Shown here piece after piece: positions 8,036 to 51,549 of a stretch of 64,000 bases of DNA. The notes below the pieces were generated by a model. That model had not been told where the DNA came from and did no database searches. It saw only the letters and a program-made list of their open reading frames with translations. The stretch is from Candidatus Marinacidobacterales bacterium (GTDB taxonomy: Bacteria > Acidobacteriota > Vicinamibacteria > Marinacidobacterales > DATDRI01), in contig OZ245365.1 in assembly GCA_965226495.1 (NCBI GenBank), positions 5,952,001 to 6,016,000 on the forward strand, given 5' to 3'. The position numbers were made by a program, and so were the translations under genes. Position 1 is the first letter of the stretch, and the number at the start of each line of letters is the position of its first letter.

Positions 8036-9061
8036 ATGATATACACAATCATCGCAATCACGTTGGCGGGAGCGCTCGGCGCTTCTCAACCCGAAATAGT
8101 AGAGCGTGTGGTGGCCAAAGTGAACGGCAGGATCATCACCATGACCGAGCTGGATGATGAAATGAAGACGGTCCTGGAACAGTTGGGACCGGCCGCGAGC
8201 GCGGAGGAGGAGCGGCTCCGGATGGCCGAGTTACGTCCCGAGGTCCTCCAGAGCATGATCGACAACATGCTCGTCCTGCAGCTCGCGACCGAAAGAGGTC
8301 TCGAGGTTCCACCACGCTATTTCGAAGAGTGGAAGGCCAACGTCATGGAGGAAATGAGCCTCGAGTCCGAAGAGGAGCTTACCCGTCAGATGGAATTACA
8401 GGGCATGAACATGGCCCAGTTCAAGAAACAGTGGGAAGAGGGCCTTCTGATACAAGAGATCCGCCGTATCGAGGTAGATAACAAGGTTTCTGTCAACGAG
8501 CCGGAGATCGAAAAGTACTATCACGAGCACATCAGCGAATACACGCAACCGGCGAAGGTTCGGTTTCGTGAGATCGTCGTGCGATTCGATGCAAGCACCG
8601 AGTTTGAAGCGGTCGACAAGGCGAAGCGCCTGCATCAAGATCTGCTGCAAGGAGCCAGCTTCGCCGAAGTGGCCCGACTTCATTCAGACTCTTCATCGCG
8701 TGACGCGGGCGGCGATCTAGGTTTTTTCGAAAAGGGCGAGCTCGCCGAGCCGCTGAACGAGGTGGCCTTCAGCCTCGCGCCGGGAGAAATTAGTGAAGTG
8801 CTACGCATGGGTGCCGCGTTCTACATCGTGAAGGTGGAGGAGACGACGGAGGAGCACACCCTGCCGGTCGAAGACGTCCGCAAAACGATCGCCGACTCCA
8901 TTTATCAAGAAAGCGTGCAGGAACAAAGCAAGAAGTACATCACCAAACTCCGTGAGCAAGCCATCATTGAGATCCAGCTAGACCCGAAACCCAAGGGACC
9001 CGTTAAGCCCGACGGGCCCGCTAAGGAAGCGCAGGCTCCCGGCGAGAGCCCAGGCCAGTAA
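8036..9061 (+). CDS. SurA-like peptidyl-prolyl isomerase/chaperone
   Basis: VERVVAKVNGRIIT SurA N-domain, FAEVARLHS, GGDLGF. Confidence 0.88.
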   Translation: MIYTIIAITLAGALGASQPEIVERVVAKVNGRIITMTELDDEMKTVLEQLGPAASAEEERLRMAELRPEVLQSMIDNMLVLQLATERGLEVPPRYFEEWKANVMEEMSLESEEELTRQMELQGMNMAQFKKQWEEGLLIQEIRRIEVDNKVSVNEPEIEKYYHEHISEYTQPAKVRFREIVVRFDASTEFEAVDKAKRLHQDLLQGASFAEVARLHSDSSSRDAGGDLGFFEKGELAEPLNEVAFSLAPGEISEVLRMGAAFYIVKVEETTEEHTLPVEDVRKTIADSIYQESVQEQSKKYITKLREQAIIEIQLDPKPKGPVKPDGPAKEAQAPGESPGQ

Positions 9062-9086
9062 GGGGCAGTAAGAGACGGGTTCGTGA

Positions 9087-9353
9087 TTGCGAATTGATAA
9101 CTTCCTCAGGCAATCGCGGCTGGTGAAGCGTCGAACGCTTGCGAAGGAGCTTTGTGAGGAGGGAGCGGTGACCCTGAACGGGAGACCGGCGCGGGCGGGA
9201 AAGGAAGTCGCGCCCGGAGATCGGCTCGGTTTGAGGCTTTGGAACCGGCGGCTGGTGATCGAGGTCGAGCAGATTCCAGAAAGGGCTCCATCGGTTGTGG
9301 AAGCCCGCCAGCTGTACAGGATCATAGAGGAGAGTCGGGTAGAGGAACTGTAG
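9087..9353 (+). CDS. S4-domain RNA-binding protein (Hsp15/RqcP-like)
   Basis: MRIDNFLRQSRLVKRRTLAKELCEEGAV. Confidence 0.88.
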   Translation: MRIDNFLRQSRLVKRRTLAKELCEEGAVTLNGRPARAGKEVAPGDRLGLRLWNRRLVIEVEQIPERAPSVVEARQLYRIIEESRVEEL

Positions 9354-9355
9354 GT

Positions 9356-10375
9356 ATGAAAAGCCTAGTCATCGATCGTCTCGAAGTGAATCCGCCCTTG
9401 GTCCTCGCTCCACTCGCGGGGCATACTGATCGAGCCTTCCGTGGCTTGGTAAGGCACCTAGGTGGCTGCGGTCTGGTGGTGACCGAGATGGTCAGCTCTG
9501 AGGGGTTGACCCGAGGTAGCCAGGCTTCCCGAGATATCGCCGCCGTGACTCACGAGGAGCGCCCGGTGGGCGTCCAGGTATTCGGAACCGATCCCGACCG
9601 GCTCGCCGCCGCCGCCAACATGGTTGACGAGTTCGGTGCTGATCTGGTCGACGTCAACATGGGGTGTCCGGTTCCCAAAGTGACGCGGCTCGGCGCGGGT
9701 GCCGCTTTAATGCGTGATGTGAAGCAAGCGAGCAAACTTATTTCTCAGATGGTGAAGTTGGCCACCATTCCGGTGACGGCCAAGATCCGTTCTGGTTGGG
9801 ACTACGATTGCATCAACGCTCGAGAGGTGGCCTGCGCACTCGAAGATGCCGGCGCCGCCGCCATCACCGTACACCCGCGTTGTCGCAGTGAACGACACCG
9901 TGGGAAAGCCGCTTGGCAAGTCATTCGAGACGTGAAGGAATCGGTAAAAATTCCTGTAATCGGGAATGGAGACGTGCGCTCTGCGGAGGATGCGCGAGCG
10001 ATGATCGCCGAGACCGGCGTGGACGCCATTATGATCGGCCGCGGCGCCCTCGAGAATCCCTGGGTGTTCCGCCAAGTGAGCGACGAGCTTAGCGGTAGAG
10101 AATCGTCTCATCCCACGATGAATGACTACCGACAGGCGATCACGTTTTTTACCCAGAGTCTCAAGGAGTATCTGCCGGATAAGCTGGTAGTGAATCGTGT
10201 GAAAGCCCTCATCGGGTGGATCTCGAAGGGCTTGCCGGGAGGCGCGGCTCTCCGGCGGAACATATACGCTTCGAAGACACTTCCGGAAGTTACTCACGTT
10301 TTCGAAGCCTACTTCGCAGACCCGAACTGTCAGCTGGCGGAAGAAGAACCCCGCCTCGCACCTTACCCTGCCTAG
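9356..10375 (+). CDS. dusB: tRNA-dihydrouridine synthase B
   Basis: LAPLAG, TEMVSS, DVNMGCPV, IPVIGNGD, MIGRG. Confidence 0.92.
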   Translation: MKSLVIDRLEVNPPLVLAPLAGHTDRAFRGLVRHLGGCGLVVTEMVSSEGLTRGSQASRDIAAVTHEERPVGVQVFGTDPDRLAAAANMVDEFGADLVDVNMGCPVPKVTRLGAGAALMRDVKQASKLISQMVKLATIPVTAKIRSGWDYDCINAREVACALEDAGAAAITVHPRCRSERHRGKAAWQVIRDVKESVKIPVIGNGDVRSAEDARAMIAETGVDAIMIGRGALENPWVFRQVSDELSGRESSHPTMNDYRQAITFFTQSLKEYLPDKLVVNRVKALIGWISKGLPGGAALRRNIYASKTLPEVTHVFEAYFADPNCQLAEEEPRLAPYPA

Positions 10376-10758
10376 CCCGCCTGGCCCGTTCGCTCGGTTC
10401 CGCGAAGAGGGAGGGGACGGAAAAAGAAAACCACCGTGACGGCGAGTAGGGTCATCGCCGCACTCACCAAGAGCCATTGCGGAGCTCGAAAATACACCAA
10501 GTTCTCCACGTAGTGAATAAGGAAGGCCCCCTCGTACGCCGAAGATCCAGCTCGCCTCCACAAGGCTTGCTCAAGGTGAGTCAGCGGGCAGGTCCAACGG
10601 AAGACTTCGATCGCCAGGCTATAGATGACCGCAAGCAAGTGAATGCGCCTCAAGCGGGAGTGTCGACGTAACCAGAAAGCCCCGGTGATAACGAAAACGA
10701 TCCACGCCAAGTGCAGTAGGACTGTGGCTTCGGCGGCCAGGGTGTATACGAGCTTCAA
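10372..10758 (-). CDS. DUF2784-like membrane protein
   Basis: HLAWIVF...CPLTHLEQALW...FLIHY; start uncertain. Confidence 0.75.
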   Translation of the reverse strand: MKLVYTLAAEATVLLHLAWIVFVITGAFWLRRHSRLRRIHLLAVIYSLAIEVFRWTCPLTHLEQALWRRAGSSAYEGAFLIHYVENLVYFRAPQWLLVSAAMTLLAVTVVFFFRPLPLRGTERTGQAG

Positions 10759-11855
10759 TGAGGGGATACCTCTTCTTCTTCCCGCTCTTTCAAAACGCGA
10801 AGCACGTTTTCCCCTAAGATCTTGCGGACTCTCTCTTCGCTCCATCCCGCATCGAGCATGAGCTGGGTGAGCCCGGTAGCATCGACCGGGGTTTGCACGA
10901 AGCCGTCAAAGTCACTGCCCAGCGCCGCCACGTCCTCTCCTCCAACCGAGACCATGTGCCGGAGGTGTGCCATCACTTCGAGGAGATCCGATTGCTCCGT
11001 GGCCGGTGGGGCCAGCATGACGCCGATCACTCCCTCCTTGGCCGCTATGACCCGGATCTGCTCATCGCTGATGTTTCGCGGCGTGTCGTGGATGGCGCGT
11101 GCGCCGATGTGGCTAACGAGCGGAGGCAGAGTGGTAAGCGCGAGTGATTCCTCGAAGCTCTTTGCACTGGCATGTGAGAGATCGACCATGACGCCCCGCC
11201 GGTTCATCTCTAGAATCAGCTCTCGACCCAGATCGGTGAGCCCTCGATTCGAGCCCTGGGAGCTTCCACCGTACTTATTGTCCGCCAAGTGCACCGGCCC
11301 GATGAAGAGCACGCCTTGGTGTTTCACATCTTCGACTCGAGAGAGATCGTCGTCCAGCGCATGGGCGCCTTCAATGCCGTGAAAGACTGAGAGAACGCCT
11401 CGTCGATGGTTTTCCCGAATGGCGTCGGCGGTATCGACTCGCTGCACGAGGCCCTCGGATTGAGCGACGAAATCGTGCATGCGTTGAAGCTGATACTGAA
11501 GTCGCTCCCATGGCGACAGCCAGGTCGCTGGTGGCCAGAAGTCATGGAACGCCTTGAGTCCCGCGACACCGAAAAAGAGGGTGGCGGTGGTGAAGGCAGT
11601 AGCGTCCAAGCCCCCTTCTCGCATGCGAGAAAAATCCACGTGTCCACCAGAGGGTGGGAGGTTGAGATCGCGCGGCCAGAGGAGGGAGTCGACATGAAGG
11701 TCGATTACGATGGCCTCGCGGTGAATACGAATTGCCTCTGGACCGGGCTTCACCGCGGGGGGTGCATAGCGGGGAGTCGGTTCTAGATCGACGAGGAAGA
11801 AGATGACCAGAAAGACTAGTGAGATGGAGAGTAGGTAGCGGAGAGTGCGCCGCAT
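10755..11855 (-). CDS. Membrane dipeptidase (peptidase M19)
   Basis: IDLHVD, IEGAH, VDLSH, SH, LGSDFDG; likely start MRRTLRY, since the upstream extension lies in repeat DNA. Confidence 0.88.
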   Translation of the reverse strand: MRRTLRYLLSISLVFLVIFFLVDLEPTPRYAPPAVKPGPEAIRIHREAIVIDLHVDSLLWPRDLNLPPSGGHVDFSRMREGGLDATAFTTATLFFGVAGLKAFHDFWPPATWLSPWERLQYQLQRMHDFVAQSEGLVQRVDTADAIRENHRRGVLSVFHGIEGAHALDDDLSRVEDVKHQGVLFIGPVHLADNKYGGSSQGSNRGLTDLGRELILEMNRRGVMVDLSHASAKSFEESLALTTLPPLVSHIGARAIHDTPRNISDEQIRVIAAKEGVIGVMLAPPATEQSDLLEVMAHLRHMVSVGGEDVAALGSDFDGFVQTPVDATGLTQLMLDAGWSEERVRKILGENVLRVLKEREEEEVSPH

Positions 11856-40628: not shown

Positions 40629-41975
40629 ATGGACCGCGCAGTTGTTCACGAAGGCCGCGTTGACTCGGTCTGGCTCGCTGGCGAAGCCACGTATGAGCCC
40701 ACCCGAAGACTCACCGCTGTGCGCCGCGCCGATGTTGCCATCATCGGAGGTGGTTTCACCGGCGTGTCCACTGCCTATCACCTGTCGAAGCGACACCCGG
40801 ACAAGCGGATCCTGATCCTGGAGGCCCACGAGCTCGCTTCCGGAGCGAGTGGCCGTAACGGGGGTTTGGTCCTCACCGGGCTACCCGGTCTTCACCCGAA
40901 CGACCCCGATGAGTACCGCGATCATTACGAGATGAGCCGTGCAGGAATTGATCTCATCGAATCGATCATCAAAGAAAATGGACTGGACGTTTCGTTTCGA
41001 CGTGACGGTTGCCTCAAGCTTTTTACCAGCCAGAGACGAGCCGATATCGCCGCCGCCGAGACCGAAAGGCGTCATGCAGCGGGTGTTCCGGAGGAGTTTC
41101 TTGCTGGGGAAGTGTTAGACGATTGGATTCGAATGCAGGGCGTCAAGGGCGCCATACTCGATCCCACTGCTGGGCAGCTGAACGGTGCTCAGTTCGTACG
41201 GAGTTTGCGTCCGATCTTGGCGAACCGGGGTGTCGAGATATACGAGCGAACGCCGGTGATCTCGGTTCAAGAAGGTTCTGAAGTGAGGCTCGAGACACCG
41301 GGAGGCGAGGTCCGGGCGCGAGCGATTGTCTTGGCGACCAATGCCTACACCCCACGCCTCGGCTACTTCAAGAACCAGCTCATTCCCTTACATTCTCACG
41401 TTCTCGCGACCGAACCTCTTACTAGTAGGGAATGGGGTGAGATCGGTTGGCGAAGAGGTTGTGGGTTCATCGATGATTCGGGTCGAACAGCCTATGGTGC
41501 CATGACGGCGGAGGGCCAGATGGTCTTTGGAGGCGGGAGTAACGCTTCCTACGACTATCTTTTTGGTAGCAGGGCGAATCTTTCCGAGAGGAGAGACCAG
41601 GCGACGAACGCCGTTTACAGACAGCTGGGACGATATTTCCCGAAAGCTCGCCTCGTGGGTGTTCGTCAGCGATGGAGCGGAGCGATCGGAATGACCTTCA
41701 ACCGCGTGCCCACGATAGGCGTCCGTGGTTCCCACCGCAACGTCTACTATGCAGTAGGGTACAGCGGGTTCGGAATCACGATGTCGAACCTCGCCGGTAA
41801 GATACTTTGCGATATCTACAGCGATGACGATGATCGCTGGCGCACGTTGCCGTTTTATTGTCGGGAGCCGTCGTGGATTCCGCCCGAGCCGCTCCGTTGG
41901 TTAGGCTACAAGGCCTTCACCGGCTTGACCGGCAACTCGCCCCGCACCTGGCACAAGAAGCGCCTGCGCTCGTAG
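40629..41975 (+). CDS. FAD-dependent oxidoreductase (DadA/PuuB-like)
   Basis: IIGGGFTG, GASGRNGG, LATNAY, GYSGFG. Confidence 0.9.
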   Translation: MDRAVVHEGRVDSVWLAGEATYEPTRRLTAVRRADVAIIGGGFTGVSTAYHLSKRHPDKRILILEAHELASGASGRNGGLVLTGLPGLHPNDPDEYRDHYEMSRAGIDLIESIIKENGLDVSFRRDGCLKLFTSQRRADIAAAETERRHAAGVPEEFLAGEVLDDWIRMQGVKGAILDPTAGQLNGAQFVRSLRPILANRGVEIYERTPVISVQEGSEVRLETPGGEVRARAIVLATNAYTPRLGYFKNQLIPLHSHVLATEPLTSREWGEIGWRRGCGFIDDSGRTAYGAMTAEGQMVFGGGSNASYDYLFGSRANLSERRDQATNAVYRQLGRYFPKARLVGVRQRWSGAIGMTFNRVPTIGVRGSHRNVYYAVGYSGFGITMSNLAGKILCDIYSDDDDRWRTLPFYCREPSWIPPEPLRWLGYKAFTGLTGNSPRTWHKKRLRS

Positions 41976-41981
41976 CTGCCC

Positions 41982-42407
41982 CTACTCACCAGGTACAACC
42001 TGAATCGACCAAAGAAAGTGGGTGAGCTGGTTGATGCGTTCTTGCGCTTGCGCCTCGGTGTCGGTGGTTTTGAAGGCGTTTCCCCAGACCGGCATGTCTT
42101 TGCTCCCATGGCCGGCCACCTTTTCACGGCCGTCGATTATTTTGCCGACGTCGTCGAATGGGAATTCCCCGTTTCTCTCTCTGATGCGAGTGAGATCCGC
42201 CGGCGCCACTCTCAGATCGTTGGCGAGGGGTCCATCTCCCTTGGCGCCCAAGCCATGGCAGCTCCCACAATAGGTCTTGAAGGACTCACCTCCCGCGGCG
42301 GCCGCCGCGTTGGGCCTTTCTCTTTGCTGTCCAGCGCCCAGCAGAAGGATCGCCAGGAGGCCCGGAACGAGCAGAAGGTCAACAGTCGCAGATCTTGTCT
42401 TTTGCAT
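41982..42407 (-). CDS. Monoheme c-type cytochrome
   Basis: Signal peptide, CGSCH, PADLT, MPVWG. Confidence 0.9.
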   Translation of the reverse strand: MQKTRSATVDLLLVPGLLAILLLGAGQQRERPNAAAAAGGESFKTYCGSCHGLGAKGDGPLANDLRVAPADLTRIRERNGEFPFDDVGKIIDGREKVAGHGSKDMPVWGNAFKTTDTEAQAQERINQLTHFLWSIQVVPGE

Positions 42408-42595
42408 GTTTATTCCTCCTACTAAAGGAATGTTTCCTTTGAAGGGAGGGGCAAGAAATATTCCACCGGAGTCCCAGGATCCTCTTTCTCTATGTGGTTC
42501 TGAAGGTGTACGTTAGCAAGGTAAACCGAGGCTCGCGGGCAGTCCCGTGGCTCGGTTGGGGGATTCGGCGCAGTTTTCTGGGCTAAATAGACCAA

Positions 42596-43738
42596 ATGGC
42601 AAAGACGGGAAGTACGGTCCGATTGCTTCTGGTTGGAGCGGGGCACGCCCACATGGAGGTTATTCGACGCCTCGTAGTGAGCTCTGATTCTTGGGCGCAC
42701 GTCACCGTCGTATCCCAATTCGACAAGCACCACTATTCGGGCATGGTGCCGGGGTATCTCCGGGGGAGCTACCGCGAGGAAGACGTCTCTTTCGACCTGC
42801 CACCCCTGATCACCGCGGCCGGGGGTGAGTTCGTCTGCAAGCGAGCGGTCGGTATCGATCCCGCCCGCCGCGTCGTTCGCTTGGAAGGTGGTGGGGAGAT
42901 CGAGTACGACATCGTTTCCTTCAATGTGGGATCCCGGACCATCGCGGGGGATTCCGCCGGCCCGCATGCGGCGCTCGTGAAACCCATGTCCCGAGCGGTC
43001 GACCTTCATCGCCGCATACTCGAGCTCGCCCATCGGGACGGGAGCAAAACACGGCATGCCGCCGTTGTCGGCGGCGGGTCCGCGGGCGTGGAGATAGCCT
43101 TTGCAATATCCGCGGTGCTCGACGACGCTGGTCGCGATCGGGACGTAAAGATCCTCGAGGGTTCGGACGGGATTCTCCGGGGGTACTCGGAGCGCTTTCG
43201 AGAACGCGCCGTAAGTATCCTGAGGCACAAGAAAATCAACGTGCGTACGGGCCGGAGAGTCGTCAAGGTTCATCCGGACACGGTCGAGCTCGAGGACGGT
43301 TCTCGCGACGAGAGTGACCTGACCGTGTGGGTCACCGGACCAGCCGGCCCTGGGATCTTCGAAGGGTCGAAGCTCCAGCTCGACGGTCGCGGGTTCCTTC
43401 TCGTCGACGACTCCCTTCGCTCGTTGAGCGATCCCAATGTGCTTGGCGTCGGCGACTGTGTCACGTTGGCTAACTATCCGGCGACACCGAAGGCGGGGGT
43501 CTATGCGGTAAGAGAGGCCCCGATCCTTTGGGAGAGCCTTCTTTCGGCCGTCGGCCAGGGGGCTCGGCCTCGCTACCGACCCCAAGAAGGTTTTCTTTCT
43601 ATCCTTAATACTGCCGACGGAAAGGCCTTGTTGCGATATAAGTCCTACATCACGCATAGTCTTCCCGCCTGGTGGCTCAAGGATTGGATCGATCGGCGCT
43701 TTGTGGCGAAGTACCAAAGTTTGGTTGGAGCGAAATAG
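42596..43738 (+). CDS. Pyridine nucleotide-disulfide oxidoreductase of the type usually fused to the N-terminus of SelD
   Basis: LVGAGHAH, YSGMVPG, GGGSAGVE, GDC, PKAGVYAVR, WLKDWIDRRF. Confidence 0.85.
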   Translation: MAKTGSTVRLLLVGAGHAHMEVIRRLVVSSDSWAHVTVVSQFDKHHYSGMVPGYLRGSYREEDVSFDLPPLITAAGGEFVCKRAVGIDPARRVVRLEGGGEIEYDIVSFNVGSRTIAGDSAGPHAALVKPMSRAVDLHRRILELAHRDGSKTRHAAVVGGGSAGVEIAFAISAVLDDAGRDRDVKILEGSDGILRGYSERFRERAVSILRHKKINVRTGRRVVKVHPDTVELEDGSRDESDLTVWVTGPAGPGIFEGSKLQLDGRGFLLVDDSLRSLSDPNVLGVGDCVTLANYPATPKAGVYAVREAPILWESLLSAVGQGARPRYRPQEGFLSILNTADGKALLRYKSYITHSLPAWWLKDWIDRRFVAKYQSLVGAK

Positions 43739-43740
43739 TC

Positions 43741-44439
43741 ATGTATTTTTGCCATTCTGACGAGATGTGGCGAAAGTTTCCGCAGCTCGTTCCTGGGGCG
43801 ATGGTTATTACCGGAGTTCACGCCGATGCCGATGTGAGTCTCGCGCCTTGGTTCGACCGCGCTCGGGAACGCTTGGAGGTCGGCCCGGAGTCCCAGTTGC
43901 CGGAGATCGTCGCTTGGCGCCGCGCCTACGCGCAGATGGGAATGAAGCCCACGCAGTACCTCTCCGCCGCAGAGGCACTTCTGCGTCGCTTCCGGACGGA
44001 GGGCGATTTGCCTCTTCTTCATCCTCTGGTCGATCTTTGTAACGCGGTCTCGCTAGCCTTCGCGCTACCGGTTGCGGTCTTCGATCTCGGGAAGGTGGAT
44101 CGGTATCTCGAGGTGCGCCATTCGAAGGGTGTCGAGCAGTACCTCACCTTCGGCGGCGAGATAGAGACACCTCCTCAGGGTGAGGTGATCTTCGCCGATG
44201 CTTCGAATCAGGCTCATGCTCGCCGGTGGACGTTTCGCCAGAGCAAGAGATCCGCGATGGGCCCGGGGACGACGACGGCGCTCGTTGTTGCCGAGGGATT
44301 GCATGAGACGGCCTTCCGGGATGTTCCCGCACTACTTGATGCGCTTGATGAGGCGGTCACAAAGTCTTGGGCTGCTCCGCACCAGCGGGCCGTTTTGAGC
44401 GTCGAGGGTCCTCGCTTGGAGTTTGCTCTCGATCTCTGA
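43741..44439 (+). CDS. Standalone B3/B4 (PheRS-beta editing) domain protein
   Basis: AWRRAYAQMG.KPTQY.SAAEALLRR, LVDLCNAVSL, GEVIFAD, RRW. Confidence 0.88.
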   Translation: MYFCHSDEMWRKFPQLVPGAMVITGVHADADVSLAPWFDRARERLEVGPESQLPEIVAWRRAYAQMGMKPTQYLSAAEALLRRFRTEGDLPLLHPLVDLCNAVSLAFALPVAVFDLGKVDRYLEVRHSKGVEQYLTFGGEIETPPQGEVIFADASNQAHARRWTFRQSKRSAMGPGTTTALVVAEGLHETAFRDVPALLDALDEAVTKSWAAPHQRAVLSVEGPRLEFALDL

Positions 44440-44458
44440 TATTTAAAAGGAGGAAACC

Positions 44459-45274
44459 ATGCCGACGGTCCGATTGAGACGCGTGTCCGAGTATCCCGAG
44501 AAGATGCAGAAGCGTTTCGAGTTGGCTAAGGAATGGTTCAACTATGATTTCGAGACGCCACCGGCGATGAGTCTGGTTATGGCGTGGGACCCTGGGTTCG
44601 GCGCTCCCCATGGCCGCGCCATGAAGCGCGCCGCCGAACCGGGAGAGTTCACGCGCGCCGAAAAGGAGATGGTGGCGTCCGTCGTTAGCGGCGTGAACGC
44701 CTGCGAGTATTGAGTGAAGGCGCATACTGCAGCCGGGAAGCTGCAAGGAATGAAAGAAGACGCGCTCTGGTACGAGGCGGCGAACACGGTGGGAATCACG
44801 AACGCGCTGAACGTGGTAACGGATTCTCTGTCTCCGGACGCGAGCACGCACCTTATCGAGCCGGTGGACGAGAGGATCGATGACAAGAGAACGGCCTCGT
44901 GTTTCGCGAATATCCGAGACTTCTATGACAGTGAGAGTGTGCCGCTCCCGTTTCGGATCGCGGCGCATGACCCTGGCTATCTGGGCGATCTTTGGGAGAC
45001 GGTCCGGCACGCATTCAGCGATAGACGGCTCACGAGACGCTTCAAGGAGGCGCTGGCATTCGCAGTGTCGGTCACGACGAGCTCTCGATTCGGCACCGCC
45101 TTTCACCTCGCGGAGATGCGCCGGCTAGGAGTAGGAAACAAAGGGGTCATGGAAGTTTTGGGCATGACCCAGATGTTCTCTAGCTATACGAAGATTGCGG
45201 ATACGCTTCAGCTCGATCCGGACATGGGTGACATCGCGCCTATCGACCCGTCTCCCGTTCCCGATCCGAGCTGA
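44459..45274 (+). CDS. AhpD/CMD-like selenoprotein (CxxU, Sec85), two CMD domains, 271 aa
   Basis: In-frame TGA at 44711-44713 within VNAC-E-Y-U-VKAH (AhpD CxxC-xxxH pattern); frame stays open; AAGGAGG RBS; downstream hairpin. Confidence 0.88.
44728..44745 (+). promoter_or_regulatory. Putative bacterial SECIS element (AhpD-like gene)
   Basis: TGCAGC-CGGGAA-GCTGCA hairpin; loop starts 20 nt after the UGA and has G near its 5' side. Confidence 0.65.
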
Positions 45275-45288
45275 CTCGAGGAGGAATC

Positions 45289-45948
45289 ATGAAGAAGTGG
45301 TTGATTGGAATCGCCATAGTTGCCGGCGTGGCCGCGCTCGCTAGCCAGGGCTACTACTATGCTCTCAAGAAGGCATGGGTCCTCTACAACGAGTACGACA
45401 TCCGCAGCGAGGGTACGCTGCGGGTGGGCGATCTGGCTCCGGACCTGGAGCTCGCGAGTGTGGACGGTGGAACCCAAAAGTTATCCGATCTGTTCAAGCA
45501 AAAACCGCTGGTCCTCATTTTTGGAAGCTACACCTGACCGCCTTTTCGAGCCAGTTTGGCCGAAGTCGAAGAGCTGAGGGAGAAGTTTCGAAGCGACGCC
45601 GAGTTCGCCATCGTTTACATCAAAGAAGCTCATCCTGGGGACGAGTGGCAGCTAGATAGCAACATCGAGGGGGAGATCGTCTATAACCAACCGAACTCTT
45701 TCGAGGCGCGGATGGATCTCGCCAAGACCTTCATCGATAAGATGGAAGTGAAGACACCGACGCTCGTCGACGATATCCAGAATACGGCGATGGCTTGCTA
45801 CGCAGCGTGGCCGGAGAGGCTCTACGTCATCGACACCGATGGCACGATCGACTACAAGGGGGACATGGGACCCTTCGGATTCAAGCCGGAGCAGTTGGAA
45901 GGCTACCTCGAGGAGCGATTCGCGGGAAGGGGCGCGACAGACCGCTAG
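45289..45948 (+). CDS. Iodothyronine deiodinase-like selenoprotein (Sec83), N-terminal membrane anchor, 219 aa
   Basis: In-frame TGA at 45535-45537 within PLVLIFGSYT-U-PPF; downstream YIKEAHPGDEW, YAAWPERLYVI, YKGDMGP. Confidence 0.92.
45544..45565 (+). promoter_or_regulatory. Putative bacterial SECIS element (deiodinase-like gene)
   Basis: TTTCG-A-GCCA-GTT-TGGC-CGAAG bulged hairpin; GU-starting loop 16 nt after the UGA. Confidence 0.65.
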
Positions 45949-46985
45949 TGGCAACTCCCACTCAAACGTTCGATGCCGCGAAGGTCAAAGAACTGGCCCT
46001 CGAGCTGGGGGCCGATCTCGTCGGCATCGCCAGCGCGAAGACGCTCAACGCGTTCCCTCCCGATCCGAAGTATCCGCAGACGCCGGAGCGCGTTTCTCCT
46101 CACTGCAAGAGCGTCGTCGTCGTCGTACAACGGATCCCGGTCGGTGCCTTCCGCTGCAAGTCCAACGTGCCGGTTCAGTACTTGGATATGCTCGTGCTCC
46201 GGAAGATGGACAAGGTCGCTTATCGGTTGGCCGAGCATCTGGAGCGCGCCGGCCATCCGTCCTTCGTGACCGCGGCCCAAGAGACCGACTGGAACTATAA
46301 AAAAGCAAGCTACGGACGGCTGAGCACGCGCCACCTCGGCATCGAAGCGGGGCTCGGCACATTCGGTCTAGAAGTGAACATCTTGACGCCGGAGTACGGG
46401 CCTCGGGTCTATCTCACTGGAGTTCTGACCGAGCTCGAGCTCGAGCCCGACGCACCCATGACTGAGCAGGTGTGTATCGGCGAGTCCTGCAGCCGTTGCC
46501 TCTATAGCTGCCCAACGGATGCCATCGGGCATTTCGACATCGATAAGCGTGAATGCGCGAAGGAGGCGCAAGAGTTTGGTTTCGTCACAATCCTCAAGTA
46601 TTTCGAGCGGTTCGTCGCGGCGCCCCGAGAAGCCAAGGCGGCGATGCTGAAGTCGCGTGACCTCTACGGTTTCTGGCAGGGGTTGCTCCGGGTGGTTGGA
46701 TCCTTCGGGGATTGTCCGAGGTGCCTCGCTGTCTGCCCGGTCGGAGATGACTACTACGCGCATTTGGTCGAGATACAAAAGTTCATTCCCGAGACGACCG
46801 ACGAGAAGATCGCCAAGGCTAAGAAGTTCAAGGCGGCTCGCAAGCGTGGCGATGCCGTCGAGGGGCTCAACGAATGGAACGCCCGATGGGTAGGGCCGGA
46901 AGGTTACCAAGGTCTCGTGGCACGGCACGTCAAGAAATTCCGCGAGAAACAAAAAGAACTCCTCGCGCGGTCTGGGAAGAGATAG
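45948..46985 (+). CDS. QueG/reductive dehalogenase-like cobalamin-Fe-S protein, paralog 1
   Basis: LGADLVGIA, RHLGIEAGLG, LTPEYGPRV, CIGESCSRCLYSCP...C...CPRCLAVCP; GTG start overlaps the upstream TAG. Confidence 0.85.
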   Translation: MATPTQTFDAAKVKELALELGADLVGIASAKTLNAFPPDPKYPQTPERVSPHCKSVVVVVQRIPVGAFRCKSNVPVQYLDMLVLRKMDKVAYRLAEHLERAGHPSFVTAAQETDWNYKKASYGRLSTRHLGIEAGLGTFGLEVNILTPEYGPRVYLTGVLTELELEPDAPMTEQVCIGESCSRCLYSCPTDAIGHFDIDKRECAKEAQEFGFVTILKYFERFVAAPREAKAAMLKSRDLYGFWQGLLRVVGSFGDCPRCLAVCPVGDDYYAHLVEIQKFIPETTDEKIAKAKKFKAARKRGDAVEGLNEWNARWVGPEGYQGLVARHVKKFREKQKELLARSGKR

Positions 46986-46995
46986 TTTCCGCATC

Positions 46996-48012
46996 ATGGC
47001 CGAGATCTACCAAGCACATCTGACTGCCCAGCAGATCAAGGCGAAGGCACGGGAGCTCGGCGCCGACCTAGTCGGAATCGCCGACGGTAAGATGATAGAG
47101 GAACACCCTCCCGAGCCGAGCGATCCGCGGCGACCATCCGATATCACCGACTATGACGGTGAGCGCGTCATCGTTATGGCGAAGAAGTATACGAGTGGCA
47201 CCACCCGTATTCTTCCTTGGAACGACCGTCACAAGTACTACAACGACGAGCTGACGTTGACGCTCTTGGAAGAGGCTTCGCTCGAGCTCGTTTACTGGCT
47301 CGAGGACAACGGCTACCCGTCCATCATCATTCCTCCCACCCACGTCGATCCCTGGCGCTACCAGGACAAACCGGAGGAGCACCAAAAGACGTTACTGTCG
47401 CTAACCCATGCAGCGGTCGAGGCGGGCTTGGGAACCCTCGGTCTAAACTTGCAACTGCTTACGCCCGAGTACGGACCGCGGGTGATCCTCACCGCGGTAC
47501 TGTGCTCCGTGGATTGCGAAGCAGACAGTCGCATCGAAGAAGCGCTCTGCCTCGGGCCCGAGTGCGGGCGGTGTTTGGAAACCTGCCCCGGAGACGTCGT
47601 CCAGCACTGGAATCGCGATTGGGAAGGGTGCGATCGCTACCGATCGCCGCACGGCTTCGCCCAGTTGACCGACCACCTCGTCACCATCCTGGACGAGGCG
47701 GACGTTGCCAAACAGAAGGAGATGGTCCGTTCGGAGGAAAGCTTCAACCTTTGGCAGAGCATTTTGCGAGGGGCCGGTGTCATTACCGGTTGCCGCCGGT
47801 GCCAGGACGTCTGCCCGGTGGGCGAAGACTACGCCGTCCTGGAGGATGCTCTAGAACGGATCCCCGAGAGCACGCCCGAGAAGAAGACACACCTCCTCGA
47901 GATGATGGAGGTCGAAAAAAGGGAAGTCCCCCCTGGCGGCTACCAAGCCCAACGCCGTTGGATCGGGGAGGTTACGTACCGCAAGCCCTGGCCTAAAGCC
48001 TTCGATGTCTGA
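46996..48012 (+). CDS. QueG/reductive dehalogenase-like cobalamin-Fe-S protein, paralog 2
   Basis: LGADLVGIA, THAAVEAGLG, LTPEYGPRV, CLGPECGRCLETCP...C...CRRCQDVCP. Confidence 0.85.
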   Translation: MAEIYQAHLTAQQIKAKARELGADLVGIADGKMIEEHPPEPSDPRRPSDITDYDGERVIVMAKKYTSGTTRILPWNDRHKYYNDELTLTLLEEASLELVYWLEDNGYPSIIIPPTHVDPWRYQDKPEEHQKTLLSLTHAAVEAGLGTLGLNLQLLTPEYGPRVILTAVLCSVDCEADSRIEEALCLGPECGRCLETCPGDVVQHWNRDWEGCDRYRSPHGFAQLTDHLVTILDEADVAKQKEMVRSEESFNLWQSILRGAGVITGCRRCQDVCPVGEDYAVLEDALERIPESTPEKKTHLLEMMEVEKREVPPGGYQAQRRWIGEVTYRKPWPKAFDV

Positions 48013-49114
48013 CGCAATCCGCCTGCTTTGTTCGATCGTCGCAGCCTCCCTTCTTTCATCGACTACAACGTCCGCGCAAACCGTGCTCCGAACCCGGAAC
48101 GTCGTTCTGGTTACCGCCGACGGCCTGCGGCACCAGGAGCTCTTCGGTGGACTGGACCGCGCTCTTCTCGAGGGCGAACGAAAGAGTGGAATCGAGGATC
48201 CCGAGGCCCTTTCGGCACGCTTTTGGCGCCACTCAACACGGGACCGTCGCGAACGGTTGATGCCCTTTTTCTGGAAGACCCTTGCACCCCGGGGGATCGT
48301 TCTTGGGAGTCGCGCCGACGGGGCCACGGTCTCGGTGACCAATCCTCATCGCGTCTCCTATCCCTGCTATGCGGAGATACTCACCGGTCAAGTACAGCCA
48401 AAAGTAACCGGCAACATCCCGATCCAGATTCCCCACGAGACGGTGCTCGAGTTCGTCCGACGAGAGCTCGAGCTGGAGACGACCCAAGTCGCAGCCTTCA
48501 CTTCATGGAATCACTTTCCTTATATCGTCGAGCACCAGCCCGGGTCCATCACCGTAAACGCTGGAGGGCCGTTGCCCGAGGGCATGCAAACCGAGGAGAT
48601 CCGTCGCCTTGTATCGCTCGAAAAGAGAACGCTGTCTCCATGGAGCTCGGTGCGGCAGAACGTCTTCACCGAAGGCCTAGCCTTCGCTTACCTCAGGGAG
48701 TTCCAGCCGCGCTTTCTTTTTCTCGCGCTCGATGAGACCGACGAGTGGGCCCACGGGCGGCGCTACGACCGTACCCTCCAGGCGATCCGAAACTTCGATG
48801 AGACGCTTCGGTTGTTATGGACGCTCCTCCAGTCGATGGAGGCTTATCGCGACAAGACGACGTTCGTGATCACGACCGACCATGGACGGGGCCGCACGCC
48901 CGCCGATTGGACGTCACACGGCAAAGACATCCCGGGGGCCGAGGAGATTTGGATCGCGATCATCGGCCCCGATACAACTGCCCAGGGGGTCGTCCCCAAC
49001 CATCCCCCTTTTAAGCAGACCCAGATCGCCGCCACGATTCTCAAGTTCTTCGGGCTGGATCCAGGAAAGTTCAACCCTCGAGCCGGGGAGCCGGTTTCGC
49101 TCGCGTTACCCTGA
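48005..49114 (+). CDS. Secreted alkaline-phosphatase-superfamily protein
   Basis: VVLVTADGLR, SYP.Y.EILTG, ETDEWAH, ITTDHGRG. Confidence 0.85.
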   Translation: MSDAIRLLCSIVAASLLSSTTTSAQTVLRTRNVVLVTADGLRHQELFGGLDRALLEGERKSGIEDPEALSARFWRHSTRDRRERLMPFFWKTLAPRGIVLGSRADGATVSVTNPHRVSYPCYAEILTGQVQPKVTGNIPIQIPHETVLEFVRRELELETTQVAAFTSWNHFPYIVEHQPGSITVNAGGPLPEGMQTEEIRRLVSLEKRTLSPWSSVRQNVFTEGLAFAYLREFQPRFLFLALDETDEWAHGRRYDRTLQAIRNFDETLRLLWTLLQSMEAYRDKTTFVITTDHGRGRTPADWTSHGKDIPGAEEIWIAIIGPDTTAQGVVPNHPPFKQTQIAATILKFFGLDPGKFNPRAGEPVSLALP

Positions 49115-49233
49115 GCCTGCCGCTAGATCTCCGAGCGAGGACCGGGTACAGGATTTGATCTACGTCACAGTCATCGCCACCGTTCGCGTGGTAGAACTGA
49201 ACTGCGGGTTTCTCGAACCCGCAGGGGGTTCCA

Positions 49234-49887
49234 ATGATGAGAATCGATCACGCCTCGGTCCTCTTTCAAAACTGGACGTTCTCGAAAGGCCTGAGTGAGG
49301 TCCAAGAAACCTTTACATCGATCGACGAGCTATTCGACCTTTGTGTCGTTAAGGAGATGTCCCCGGAGCGGGTCCTTCTGTCCGGAAAGGATGAGACCGG
49401 TCGCGAACACTTTCTTACGCTACTTTACGGAGTGATGCGCGTCGCTCCAAGCGATTCGAACGGGGAGCAAATCACCGACGATTCGAGTCCACCACCGAAG
49501 GCGGATCCGGCCCAACTCGACGTTCATTCAAAGGGTTCGTTGCACGAACTCGAGCAAGCGGTACTCGGCGCTATGCGCCCCGGTCCAGATTCACCGGCTG
49601 AAGAACCGAGTTACCTAGACGAGATTCGGGAGCTCTGCCACGAACGAGCTTGGGACGCGACGGTGAGACTATCGGATTTGGCCCAATCGCTAAGTAGCCT
49701 GGTCAACGGTATCACTTGGGCGCAAAAGGTCGTTGAGTTCCGCGGGGCGCAAGATGGCGAGGGATCGGAACGTACGGAGTTGGCCACCATGCTCGAGGGC
49801 GGGGTCGGGAGAATAGGACATATGCGGAGCATGCTGGCCGTTTTCGACCGGCAGCTCATTGCTCTGGCTGGTCGTCTCGCGAAATAG
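49234..49887 (+). CDS. Hypothetical protein
   Basis: 217-aa ORF with plausible composition, no recognised motif. Confidence 0.55.
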   Translation: MMRIDHASVLFQNWTFSKGLSEVQETFTSIDELFDLCVVKEMSPERVLLSGKDETGREHFLTLLYGVMRVAPSDSNGEQITDDSSPPPKADPAQLDVHSKGSLHELEQAVLGAMRPGPDSPAEEPSYLDEIRELCHERAWDATVRLSDLAQSLSSLVNGITWAQKVVEFRGAQDGEGSERTELATMLEGGVGRIGHMRSMLAVFDRQLIALAGRLAK

Positions 49888-49911
49888 TCTCAAAAACCTT
49901 AGGCAGGACGT

Positions 49912-51549
49912 CTACTCCTCTATTGATTTTCTTTCCGACTCCTTCTGTCGCAGTTCCACACGGCGGATCTTGCCGGTTTGGGTGCGAGGAAGCTCGGATA
50001 CAAACTCGACTTCGCGCGGATATTTGTATGGCGCGAGCTGCTCTCGCACATGCTTTTGGAGCTCCTCGGTGAGCTCGGCACCAGCGTCGAAGCTCTTGTT
50101 CAGGACGACGAAGGCTTTCACGATGTGCCCGCGAAGCTCGTCCGGCGAAGCGACGACCGCCGTTTCCGCTACCGCCGCGTGTTCCATTAGAACGTTCTCC
50201 ACCTCCGGGCCGGCGACGTTGTAGCCGGAAGTGATAATTAGATCGTCGCCGCGACATTGGTAGTGGAAGTAACCTTCTGAGTCGCGCGTGTAGATGTCCC
50301 CGGGTAGGTTCCAACCTTCCCGGACGTATCGCTTCTGACGCTCCGGCTTGCCCCAGTACTTGCAACCGGTGGGTCCGGAAACGGCGAGCATCCCCGGTTT
50401 TCCGTCGGGAAGATCCTGCATTTTTTCGTCCACCACTCTTGCCTGATAACCCGGAACGACTTCGCCCGTTGATCCGGCTCGTGCGCGACCCGGCTGAGAG
50501 GAAATGAAGATGTGGAACAATTCGGTGCTCCCGATCCCGTCGAGGAGCTCCATGTCGAACATCTCTTTCCACTGCTCGAACGTCACCGCAGGGAGAGTCT
50601 CCCCAGCACTCACCGGCGCCCGAAGGCTCGAGAGATCGAACCGTTGTTTTACGTTCTCGACCTGCATCATGAGTTTGTAGGAAGTCGGCGCGCAGAACGC
50701 GCCGGTCGCGCGGTATCGAGTGATGGTATCCAACATCGTTTCTGGAGTGAACCGCTCGATGAGACATGTCGCGGCCCCGAATCGGAGCGGATAGACCAAC
50801 AACCCGCCTAGTCCGAAGGTGAAGGCGAGAGGCGGATGACCGGTGAAAATATCTCCCGGCTCCGGGGCGAGGACTTTCTTGGCATAGGTGTCCGCGGAGG
50901 CGAGTACGTCGCTCGGGAAGTGGACGCAGCCTTTGGGAACACCGGTGCTGCCCGATGTGTAGGCGATGAGCGCCGGCTCGTCCCGGCCGATCTCCACCGA
51001 GGGCACCGGTTCGTACGCGGCGAGCTCCTCGAAGGTCGGTGAGCCTGGTGAGCCTGACGTAGAGTCTCCCGACACAACAATCTTCTCGATGGTGTCGAGC
51101 TGTGGTCGCGCTTTCTCCATCTCTTCGTAGAGGTCTGAAGAGACCAAGGCGACTTTTACTCGAGAGTCGTTTGAAACGTATTCCAACTCCCGCGCGCGAA
51201 GCAGTGGCATGGTCGCTAGCACGACCGCGCCCAACTTCTGAAGGGCGAACCAGGCGACGACGAATTCGGGACGATTGGGGAAGCGAAGCAAAACTCGATC
51301 GGTCGGCTCGACGCCTATGCTACGAAGCCCCCCCGCGAGCCGACTCGCCCTCTCGTCGAGCTCCCGGTAGCTGATGATCTCGTCCCGGTAGTAGATCGCA
51401 GGCATTTCGGCGAGCCCGGAATCCATCGCACGGCGCAGAAGCTCGTCGGCGAGGTTGAGTCGTGAAGGAATTTCGACAGTGACCCCATGCGCCCGGCGTG
51501 GCGGCATGAGATCCGCCGCGGGAAGGTAATCGGTTAGGTCGAAGGCCAA
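49912..51549 (-). CDS. Benzoate/2-aminobenzoate-CoA ligase family protein
   Basis: YTSGSTGVPKG, PPLAFTFGLGG, SAGETL, DGIGSTE, APYKYPR, TGKI. Confidence 0.88.
   Translation of the reverse strand: MAFDLTDYLPAADLMPPRRAHGVTVEIPSRLNLADELLRRAMDSGLAEMPAIYYRDEIISYRELDERASRLAGGLRSIGVEPTDRVLLRFPNRPEFVVAWFALQKLGAVVLATMPLLRARELEYVSNDSRVKVALVSSDLYEEMEKARPQLDTIEKIVVSGDSTSGSPGSPTFEELAAYEPVPSVEIGRDEPALIAYTSGSTGVPKGCVHFPSDVLASADTYAKKVLAPEPGDIFTGHPPLAFTFGLGGLLVYPLRFGAATCLIERFTPETMLDTITRYRATGAFCAPTSYKLMMQVENVKQRFDLSSLRAPVSAGETLPAVTFEQWKEMFDMELLDGIGSTELFHIFISSQPGRARAGSTGEVVPGYQARVVDEKMQDLPDGKPGMLAVSGPTGCKYWGKPERQKRYVREGWNLPGDIYTRDSEGYFHYQCRGDDLIITSGYNVAGPEVENVLMEHAAVAETAVVASPDELRGHIVKAFVVLNKSFDAGAELTEELQKHVREQLAPYKYPREVEFVSELPRTQTGKIRRVELRQKESERKSIEE

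Follow-up and report, generated by a model that had tools for sequence, protein, structure and literature searches.

A deiodinase-like gene of a Candidatus Marinacidobacterales bacterium in which an in-frame TGA almost certainly encodes selenocysteine

The 64,000-nt stretch of DNA analysed here, referred to as the window, covers positions 5,952,001 to 6,016,000 of contig OZ245365.1 from a Candidatus Marinacidobacterales bacterium. Within it, a program-made list of open reading frames (ORFs) gives two short pieces in the same frame on the + strand, one at 45289..45537 (82 aa, starting with ATG) and one at 45556..45948 (130 aa, starting with TTG); all coordinates are positions within the window unless stated otherwise. 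The locus raises the question of whether the TGA that ends the first piece is a stop codon or encodes selenocysteine (Sec, U), and what kind of enzyme a read-through product would be. When TGA is read as U, the two pieces become a single 219-residue product with no other stop until the TAG at 45946-45948. An earlier note on this DNA had described them as one frame joined by a TGA at 45535, and both the sequence and its translation agree with that description. The read-through active site is KPLVLIFGSYT-U-PPFRASLAEVEEL, in which the Sec is followed by PPFRASL, so that the residues around it are S80-Y-T82-U83-P-P-F. We conclude that the product is a selenoprotein of the PF00837 fold and belongs to the bacterial deiodinase-like selenoproteins that were predicted computationally in 2005. 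The features of the gene are as follows.

45278..45284, + strand: Shine-Dalgarno sequence GAGGAGG, 4 bases upstream of the ATG, read from the sequence
45289..45948, + strand: deiodinase-like selenoprotein gene, 219 codons plus a TAG stop, with the UGA-Sec codon as codon 83
45298..45354, + strand: N-terminal hydrophobic segment, a predicted signal-anchor, residues 4-22, WLIGIAIVAGVAALASQGY
45535..45537, + strand: in-frame TGA, codon 83, read as selenocysteine
45542..45573, + strand: candidate bacterial selenocysteine insertion sequence (SECIS) hairpin, 16 nt from the UGA to the loop
45616..45648, + strand: Y110-I-K-E113-A-H115-P-G-D118-E-W120, the conserved edge of the deiodinase (DIO) loop-D insertion, holding three proton-relay residues (Tyr, Glu, His) and the Trp paired with the His
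45796..45798, + strand: TGC codon of Cys170, a second cysteine specific to this clade that may act as the resolving Cys

The family assignment does not depend on the short motifs. The read-through product matches PF00837, T4_deiodinase, with E=3.2e-36 and 125.3 bits (gathering cut-off 27), far more than chance would give, and thereby takes the place in this family that the earlier note had proposed for it. The match crosses the TGA in one stretch of the hidden Markov model (HMM), from residue 24 to residue 209 and from profile position 53 to 235 of 237. Weaker Pfam matches to AhpC/TSA (PF00578, 44.8 bits, cut-off 26) and Redoxin (35.1 bits) also pass their cut-offs. Among solved structures, the best relatives of the window protein are mouse Dio3 (4tr3, E=9.7e-26) and mouse Dio2 (9h48, E=3.3e-20). 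A profile built from 44 family members finds the same two in the PDB at E=4.3e-40 and E=5.9e-35, respectively, and the next match is a thioredoxin-family protein at 8.9e-08.

Two other assignments were considered. The C-terminal 160 residues match positions 177-338 of the 347 positions of NCBIfam NF038285, deiodinase_rel, with E=1.2e-55. Membership in this hypothetical equivalog was rejected, since the score of 189.3 bits lies below the cut-off of 250 and the match is confined to the C-terminal half of the model; the N-terminal half (~175 positions) has no counterpart in the window protein. The periplasmic thiol-disulfide oxidoreductases of the TlpA/ResA type resemble it in having a thioredoxin-fold domain behind an N-terminal anchor and a redox residue where the first helix begins, and weak matches to ResA (NF002854, E=1.1e-06) and to TlpA and ResA structures were found. 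Unlike these proteins, the window protein has Phe in place of the second Cys of CxxC and carries the DIO loop-D insertion, and its score is 28.7 bits against a family cut-off of 170.

Bacterial proteins of this kind were described by Zhang, Fomenko and Gladyshev in a 2005 study of the Sargasso Sea, which reported four Sec-containing deiodinase-like sequences, Cys homologues and bacterial SECIS elements (PMC1088965). The authors suggested a redox function and judged a thyroid-hormone substrate unlikely (PMC1088965). According to a 2026 review, the functions of computationally predicted selenoproteins, including the deiodinase-like ones, are largely unknown (PMC13188914). These two sources agree with the statement in the earlier note that the family had been predicted computationally and was of unknown function. 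The window gene shares with the described family (PMC1088965; PMC2398784; PMC9312934; PMC13188914) the PF00837 domain, a UGA aligned with Cys, a hairpin with a G in its loop and a bacterial host. A search of a limited library by titles and abstract openings found no report of an experimentally characterised bacterial PF00837 protein.

Several lines of evidence bear on whether the TGA is decoded as Sec. The host genome, a single 6.34-Mb contig, carries a tRNA-Sec scoring 70.9 bits (cut-off 47), for which ARAGORN gives the anticodon tca (UCA), together with SelB (377.7 bits), SelA (570.1 bits) and SelD (332.6 bits), all above their cut-offs. When 40 related genomes of the order were searched, an ortholog with 59-89% identity was found in 13 of them, each with a TGA inside the match, and all 14 order-level loci (window included; 59-100% identity) have the TGA in the same column, as FGSYT-U-PPFRA. 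A wider scan with one genome per species gave 357 confirmed relatives, of which the best 80 loci were examined. The TGA stands in the catalytic column in 79 of these 80; 78 fit G-S-x-T-U-P-[PSA]-[FY] and one, L115, has U-P-V-F. The remaining locus, L101, has TGC (Cys) at the Sec column. When 401 genomes were sampled evenly across the phylum, 45 proved to have the gene at E<=1e-25; 42 of the 45 carry the TGA and three do not. Three of the sampled carriers (G064, G089 and G192) are unpublished genomes, each with a TGA; without them the gene is found in 42/398 genomes and the TGA in 39/42.

Protein databases contain 274 relatives at E<=1e-5. Among the 120 that were listed, 115 are C-terminal pieces of 121-156 aa, which indicates that gene callers stopped at the TGA, and all five full-length homologues have Cys at the Sec column. 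The column of residue 83, for which the earlier note had anticipated Cys or TGA in orthologs, is thus occupied by TGA in 79/80 loci and by Cys in L101 and in the 5/5 full-length database proteins. In the structural alignment the window TGA coincides with the catalytic Sec170 of Dio3, which is a Cys in the 4tr3 crystal construct. Sec/Cys pairing and a host with Sec machinery, the features by which bacterial deiodinase-like selenoproteins are recognised, are therefore both present. A sequencing error at the codon, which the earlier note had named as a way for its reading to fail, is not indicated: contigs assembled from four runs of four studies, one of which may be the source of the assembly itself, have no differing letter or indel over 45200-46000 and show an identical TGA.

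Bacterial Sec codons are expected to be followed by a SECIS element, which lies inside the coding region right after the UGA in the bacterial gene and in the 3' untranslated region in type I deiodinase (PMC1088965). In the window gene, a hairpin with the sequence CUUUUCGA-GCCA-[GUU]-UGGC-cgaag-UCGAAGAG starts 5 nt past the UGA. Its lower stem pairs 45542-45549 with 45566-45573, its upper stem pairs GCCA (45550-45553) with UGGC (45557-45560), and GUU (45554-45556) forms the apical loop; the minimum free energy is -11.5 kcal/mol. The small, G-containing apical loop shortly after the UGA that characterises bacterial SECIS elements is present here, making this a candidate element. The register of the hairpin shifts by 1-2 nt between clades, so no single structure suits every member, and positional and synonymous-recoding controls were therefore used on 72 genes. 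The apical loop contains a G in 71 of the 72, and it starts 16-17 nt past the UGA in 49. Compared along the gene, the 42-nt window past the UGA has the lowest mean z (-1.11) and ranks among the best 10% of windows in 32/72 genes. Against synonymous recodings its mean z is -1.35, vs -0.26 to -0.59 in control windows, and it beats at least 95% of the recodings in 27/72 genes, vs 5-12/72 in four control windows. As the family members are related, these hairpin counts overstate independence. The stem sequences vary by clade (GCCA/UGGC, GGCGCUC/GAGCGCC, GUCGCC/GGCGAC, AAGAUC/GAUCUU), and what is kept is the position and the G-rich loop.

Some results speak against Sec decoding. The hairpin of the window gene is unremarkable when taken alone (z=-1.17, with 24/200 shuffles as good, and rank 0.17 in its own gene). 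RNAalifold on the 14 closest orthologs gave a 9-pair consensus in which 0/9 pairs show compensatory double changes and all changes are one-sided, and an Rfam scan of 44400-46100 at E<=10 gave no SECIS family, its four matches being to snoRNAs or sRNAs at chance level. There are no RNA runs among the 24 runs listed with the stretch. The alternative is that the TGA is a true stop, the locus then holding two separate small genes or a decayed pseudogene, or else that it is an assembly error. The weak hairpin of the window gene fits this alternative, which would also account for the splitting or truncation of the gene by gene callers nearly everywhere, as in the 115/120 listed relatives that are C-terminal pieces; a TTG is available at 45556 to start the second piece, and a few relatives (L037, L038, L039 and L073) are frameshifted. 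This alternative would leave unexplained why a single HMM stretch of one domain spans the TGA, why the TGA falls exactly at the catalytic Sec/Cys column and is kept down to 38% identity in several phyla, and why the genome has complete Sec machinery; four independent contig sets agree on the TGA. We regard it as effectively refuted. Given the Sec machinery, the conservation of the TGA, the Cys homologues, the G-containing hairpin and the TGA in independent contigs, the codon almost certainly encodes selenocysteine, and we are highly confident that the product is a true selenoprotein of the PF00837 family.

The frameshifts mentioned above take the form of interrupted orthologs at L037/L049, L038/L055, L039 and L073, where either the N-terminal part is out of frame with the rest or the C-terminus is extended. 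Indel errors in long-read assemblies could explain them, as could genuine decay.

Within the family, the use of Sec at this position is unusually consistent. The GOS survey lists 22 Sec forms vs 21 Cys homologues for the deiodinase-like family (PMC2398784, Table 2), and the same table gives 253 Sec vs 7,348 Cys forms for peroxiredoxin (Prx) and 40 vs 3,287 for glutathione peroxidase (GPx) (PMC2398784). For animal deiodinases, a drop in Dio activity of about 1000-fold is reported when Cys takes the place of Sec (PMC11592359). From the sequence counts above, Sec appears to be nearly obligatory in the anchored U-P-P-F family.

How far the resemblance to animal deiodinases extends was assessed by mapping residues in two ways, with an HMMER alignment of the window protein and with an alignment of the 44-member family profile to the PDB; conservation was counted per column in 81 sequences, the window protein plus the 80 loci. 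What the window protein has in common with animal DIOs is the fold family, the FGS-x-T-U-PPF active site, the Tyr, Glu, His and Trp of the loop-D edge, the E-R before a beta-strand, an N-terminal hydrophobic anchor and the nearly constant use of Sec. From F78 to F86 the active site is the same as in Dio except for one residue, and the alignments to Dio3 and Dio2 uphold the parallel with the animal active site drawn in the earlier note. Its motifs YIKEAHPGDEW, YAAWPERLYVI and YKG..GP are likewise present and align in both alignments with mouse Dio3 4tr3, where the counterparts are IYIEEAHPSDGW, YGAYFERLYVI and YQGGRGP, respectively. Tyr197, Glu200, His202 and Trp207 of Dio3 align with Y110, E113, H115 and W120. 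Invariant in 81/81 sequences are Ser80, Thr82, Pro84, Phe86, Arg87, Tyr110, Glu113, His115, Trp120, Trp174 and Arg177; Pro175 and Glu176 are kept in 80/81, the Glu176 exception being a gap.

The proton relay described for DIO comprises, in Dio2 numbering, Ser127, Thr129, Tyr157, Glu160, His162 and His182 (PMC11592359). Five of these six residues are present and invariant in the bacterial family (S80, T82, Y110, E113 and H115), and the place of the second His is taken by Pro135. The cysteines differ as well. At the proximal Cys of DIOs the window protein has Tyr81, as both the Dio3 alignment and the family columns confirm for the substitution pointed out in the earlier note; of the 81 sequences, 49 have Phe in this column, 30 have Tyr and 2 have Cys. 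Column 156 corresponds to the distal Cys of DIOs (Cys239 in Dio3); it is I, L, T, V, M or G in 78/81 and is not among the conserved-Cys columns, defined as those with Cys in at least eight sequences. Only columns 83, 131 and 170 have Cys in >=8 sequences.

Apart from residue 83, 77 of the 81 sequences have exactly one further Cys, always at one of three positions and never at two of them together: 64 sequences have it in column 131, 11 (the clade of the window protein) in column 170 and 2 in column 81, the last giving the animal-like S-C-T-U. All 115 C-terminal fragments among the 120 listed database proteins, which are close relatives, have Cys170 and lack Cys131. In a quick maximum-likelihood tree, a branch with support of 99 divides the C131 clade (65 rows) from a 16-row clade that holds C170, C81 and three rows without a second Cys, with 5 label changes overall, so that the pattern of exclusive Cys positions goes back to few evolutionary events. 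In human DIO1, the selenenyl-sulfide between the proximal Cys and Sec is what glutathione reduces, and deiodination itself is independent of the proximal Cys (PMC9141512). By analogy, Cys170 is a candidate resolving Cys. The earlier note had reasoned that, with the proximal Cys lost, reduction may depend on an external partner. The loss stands; the argument is incomplete, as animal Dio2 also lacks the proximal Cys and has Ala there (PMC11592359), and the clade of the window protein has the conserved Cys170 instead.

Sequences from Planctomycetota, Myxococcota, Acidobacteriota, Verrucomicrobiota and other phyla are interleaved in the C131 clade of the gene tree, which points to passage of the gene between phyla by horizontal transfer.

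Residues 4-22 of the window protein form a hydrophobic 19-mer with a Kyte-Doolittle mean of 1.62, and a comparable 19-mer (mean >=1.6) lies N-terminal to the domain in 71/81 sequences. Flanking charge predicts membrane orientation by the positive-inside rule, and it was analysed in 66 anchored sequences. The N-tail has a median of 6 residues, and in 64/66 it carries more positive charge than the 15 residues that follow the helix, so the protein is predicted by this rule to lie N-in/C-out with its catalytic domain in the periplasm. The N-terminal membrane anchor proposed in the earlier note is therefore retained as a hydrophobic segment, and its likeness in orientation to the animal proteins probably is not, as the charge bias predicts a periplasmic domain. 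The host genome encodes one CcdA/DsbD-type membrane protein (CcdA/DsbD_TM, 65.3 bits), which could feed electrons outward.

Taken together, the best explanation of the locus is very probably a Sec-containing, anchored PF00837 enzyme working along the following lines. The basic N-tail and hydrophobic helix would fix the protein to the cytoplasmic membrane and place its catalytic domain in the periplasm. There the Sec83 selenolate would attack an electrophilic atom of a small substrate, while a DIO-type relay of Ser80, Thr82, Tyr110, Glu113 and His115, with Trp120, would deliver a proton. Cys170 may then resolve the selenenyl intermediate to give a Sec83-Cys170 selenenyl-sulfide, comparable to the one formed with the proximal Cys in human DIO1, and an external thiol-disulfide relay would reduce it, for which the CcdA/DsbD-type protein is available in the genome.

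Which substrate is attacked is a matter on which we hold graded opinions. Because the DIO-specific relay is invariant and Sec is near-obligatory, a halogen on a halogenated phenolic compound, removed by DIO-like reductive dehalogenation, may be the target, a preference we hold only tentatively. A hydroperoxide, handled as in peroxiredoxins, is also possible, if rather doubtful, in view of the Prx-like fold and residues and the movable resolving Cys. That the substrate is something else seems unlikely, and thyroid hormone itself, a subset of the halogen case, is very unlikely because the carboxylate clamp and the second relay His are missing. An extended proposal is that the anchored U-P-P-F proteins are widespread, periplasm-facing, selenium-dependent and cobalamin-independent reductive dehalogenases of natural halogenated phenolics, that they are the ancestral stock of the animal deiodinases, and that their resolving Cys has moved between at least three positions; we put this forward as speculation that is unlikely to hold in full.

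Dehalogenation has several observations to contend with. The column of Dio3 His219, the second relay His, is Pro in 81/81 family sequences. The carboxylate clamp formed by Dio3 Arg275 or Dio2 Lys241 corresponds to Met193 in the window protein, and the clamp column is M, P, T, L, V or S in 79/81 sequences, with no Arg or Lys among these. In scans of flanking ORFs, no dehalogenation or aromatic-catabolism partner was found conserved beside the gene, and the adjacency to QueG/RdhA-like genes in the window was rejected as a sign of a general dehalogenation operon, as this adjacency is limited to the genus. The Ser/Thr and Arg of the Prx type are present too, so that a peroxidase fits these residues equally well. 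The protein would then be a selenium-dependent, peroxiredoxin-like peroxidase and not a dehalogenase, with Sec83 forming a selenenic acid, Cys170 resolving it and a thioredoxin-like partner recycling the enzyme, and the bacterial proteins would be peroxidase ancestors of the animal deiodinases. Consistent with this are the AhpC/TSA and Redoxin matches above cut-off (44.8 and 35.1 bits) and the invariance of S80, at -3 from Sec, and of R177, before the beta-strand, which we take to correspond to the catalytic Thr/Ser and Arg of Prx. In Prx subfamilies the position of the resolving Cys typically varies, a pattern that the second Cys of the family matches, and the 2005 authors had proposed a redox function (PMC1088965). 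The match to DIO nevertheless exceeds that to any Prx or thioredoxin structure by over 30 orders of magnitude, and Sec is near-obligatory (79/80 loci; 42/45 genomes), in contrast to the Cys-dominated Prx and GPx families (PMC2398784). The DIO-specific loop-D edge EAHPxDxW is invariant throughout the family. Prx proteins are not known to carry this edge. A peroxidase of this kind is thus a possibility to which we give real weight without expecting it to prove right.

The protein could also be read as a true deiodinase of iodothyronines or iodotyrosines, its substrates being molecules that resemble thyroid hormone and come from an animal host or the environment. Dio3 and Dio2 are its best solved relatives, its active site matches theirs from F78 to F86 but for one residue, and a review asserts a deiodinase-like activity of bacteria on T4, citing older studies that give no gene (PMC12521424). 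Against this, the clamp column has Met in the window protein and no Arg/Lys among the 79/81 sequences listed above, and the Dio3 His219 column has Pro in 81/81. None of the record titles of the 80 relatives names a gut or faecal source, and the 2005 authors judged a thyroid-hormone substrate unlikely (PMC1088965). This makes a true hormone deiodinase highly improbable. A Sec-containing, membrane-anchored PF00837 enzyme with a DIO-type relay, acting on a small electrophilic substrate, remains our preferred description of the gene product.

The genome of the host holds a second selenoprotein of the PF00837 family.

L126:446-1183 (G000:C1, the host contig, about 4273245-4273982): UxxC-type PF00837 paralog of 246 residues, PF00837 E=1.3e-11

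This paralog has the active site FGSIT-U-PFC, no anchor and a C-terminal extension of ~80 residues, and is 29% identical to the window protein. Relatives with the same TGA occur in four of the related genomes (G012, G018, G026 and G036). Two reviews give the Sec motif of the bacterial deiodinase-like family as UxxC (PMC9312934, PMC13188914). The window protein differs from the family as described there in having U-P-P-F, without a Cys at +3, and column 86 is Phe in 81/81 sequences. The paralog matches Dio3 with 41.4 bits vs 93.8 bits for the window protein, and by these sequence comparisons the anchored U-P-P-F type is much closer to the animal DIOs than the UxxC paralog.

Other in-frame TGA codons were noticed in the same group of bacteria. 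The SelD gene of the host (L019, G000:C1:5697778-5698710) itself contains one in-frame TGA, so that the selenophosphate synthetase of the host is probably also a selenoprotein. The related genomes G003-G039 give dozens of weak thioredoxin-fold matches with a single in-frame TGA, which suggests that the order is rich in thioredoxin-fold selenoproteins.

In the window, the deiodinase-like gene sits in a tight row of genes on the same strand, with the following neighbours.

42596-43738, + strand: pyridine-nucleotide-disulfide oxidoreductase of the 'N-terminal to SelD' family (TIGR03169, 299.6 bits, just below the cut-off of 310)
about 43744-44439, + strand: B3_4-domain protein (PF03483, E=4.6e-21)
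44459-45274, + strand: AhpD/CMD-like gene with its own in-frame TGA at 44711-44713, reading C-E-Y-U-V-K-A-H (AhpD core domain E=1.2e-12)
45948-46985 and 46996-48012, + strand: two QueG/reductive-dehalogenase-like Fe-S proteins (TIGR00276, E=1e-15 and 5e-10)
48005-49114, + strand: alkaline-phosphatase-superfamily protein (PF01676 Metalloenzyme, E=8e-09; Sulfatase, E=5.1e-04)

The AhpD-like gene directly upstream is, judging from its codons and conservation, a second hidden selenoprotein gene. The ORF list splits it into pieces of 84 aa and 186 aa, and a CUGCAGC/GCUGCAG hairpin lies 17 nt past its UGA. Orthologs from the same genus retain the TGA, as do homologues at 33-37% identity. Selenoproteins of the AhpD-like CxxU kind form a family that was already known (PMC1088965). 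The TIGR03169-type oxidoreductase stands two genes upstream of these two adjoining selenoprotein genes, and such a selenium-linked neighbourhood was found only within the genus. On the other side, the first Fe-S gene begins at the last base of the stop codon of the deiodinase-like gene. The two Fe-S genes are tandem paralogs whose PDB matches are QueG (5d08, E=2.3e-11) and PceA (1.7e-07), and both score far below the QueG and reductive dehalogenase cut-offs.

The row recurs in two genomes of the same genus, G001 and G002. A tblastn search with the six neighbours of the window gene found them in same-genus genomes only (L046 of G002; L027 and L028). In G002 (L046, 6433-7722 on the - strand and 8717-10912 on the + strand), a Mutator-family transposase lies within the AhpD-like gene, and an AMP-binding, phenylacetate-CoA-ligase-like gene separates the deiodinase-like and QueG-like genes. 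Beyond the genus, clusters of flanking genes from an all-against-all BLAST cover at most 13/81 loci, and no neighbour family defined by Pfam occurs in more than four loci among the 77 nearest upstream ORFs and the nearest downstream ORFs in 79/80 loci (L075 omitted). A general association with sulfatases was rejected, the Sulfatase domain being found in 1/77 upstream and 2/79 downstream ORFs. A promoter and terminator scan of 41500-50000 gave nothing usable for operon limits. Because nothing is shared beyond the genus, the gene context gives no guide to function.

The gene extends a family known since 2005, and its assignment is correct and worth annotating while unsurprising to specialists. 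In a standard annotation it would appear as two hypothetical ORFs, much as 115/120 of the listed database relatives are cut at the Sec codon. The family is among the few selenoprotein families common to bacteria and animals, and the search for its substrate is narrowed by the finding that the DIO relay is kept, that the hormone-specific residues are not, that the second Cys is movable and that the domain is probably outside the cytoplasm. Among the best 80 of the 357 relatives, the carriers are, judged by record title, mainly uncultured Acidobacteriota, Planctomycetota and Myxococcota, together with cultured Polyangium strains (L063, L064, L066 and L067). The orthologs in these cultured strains make a genetic and biochemical test of the function possible.

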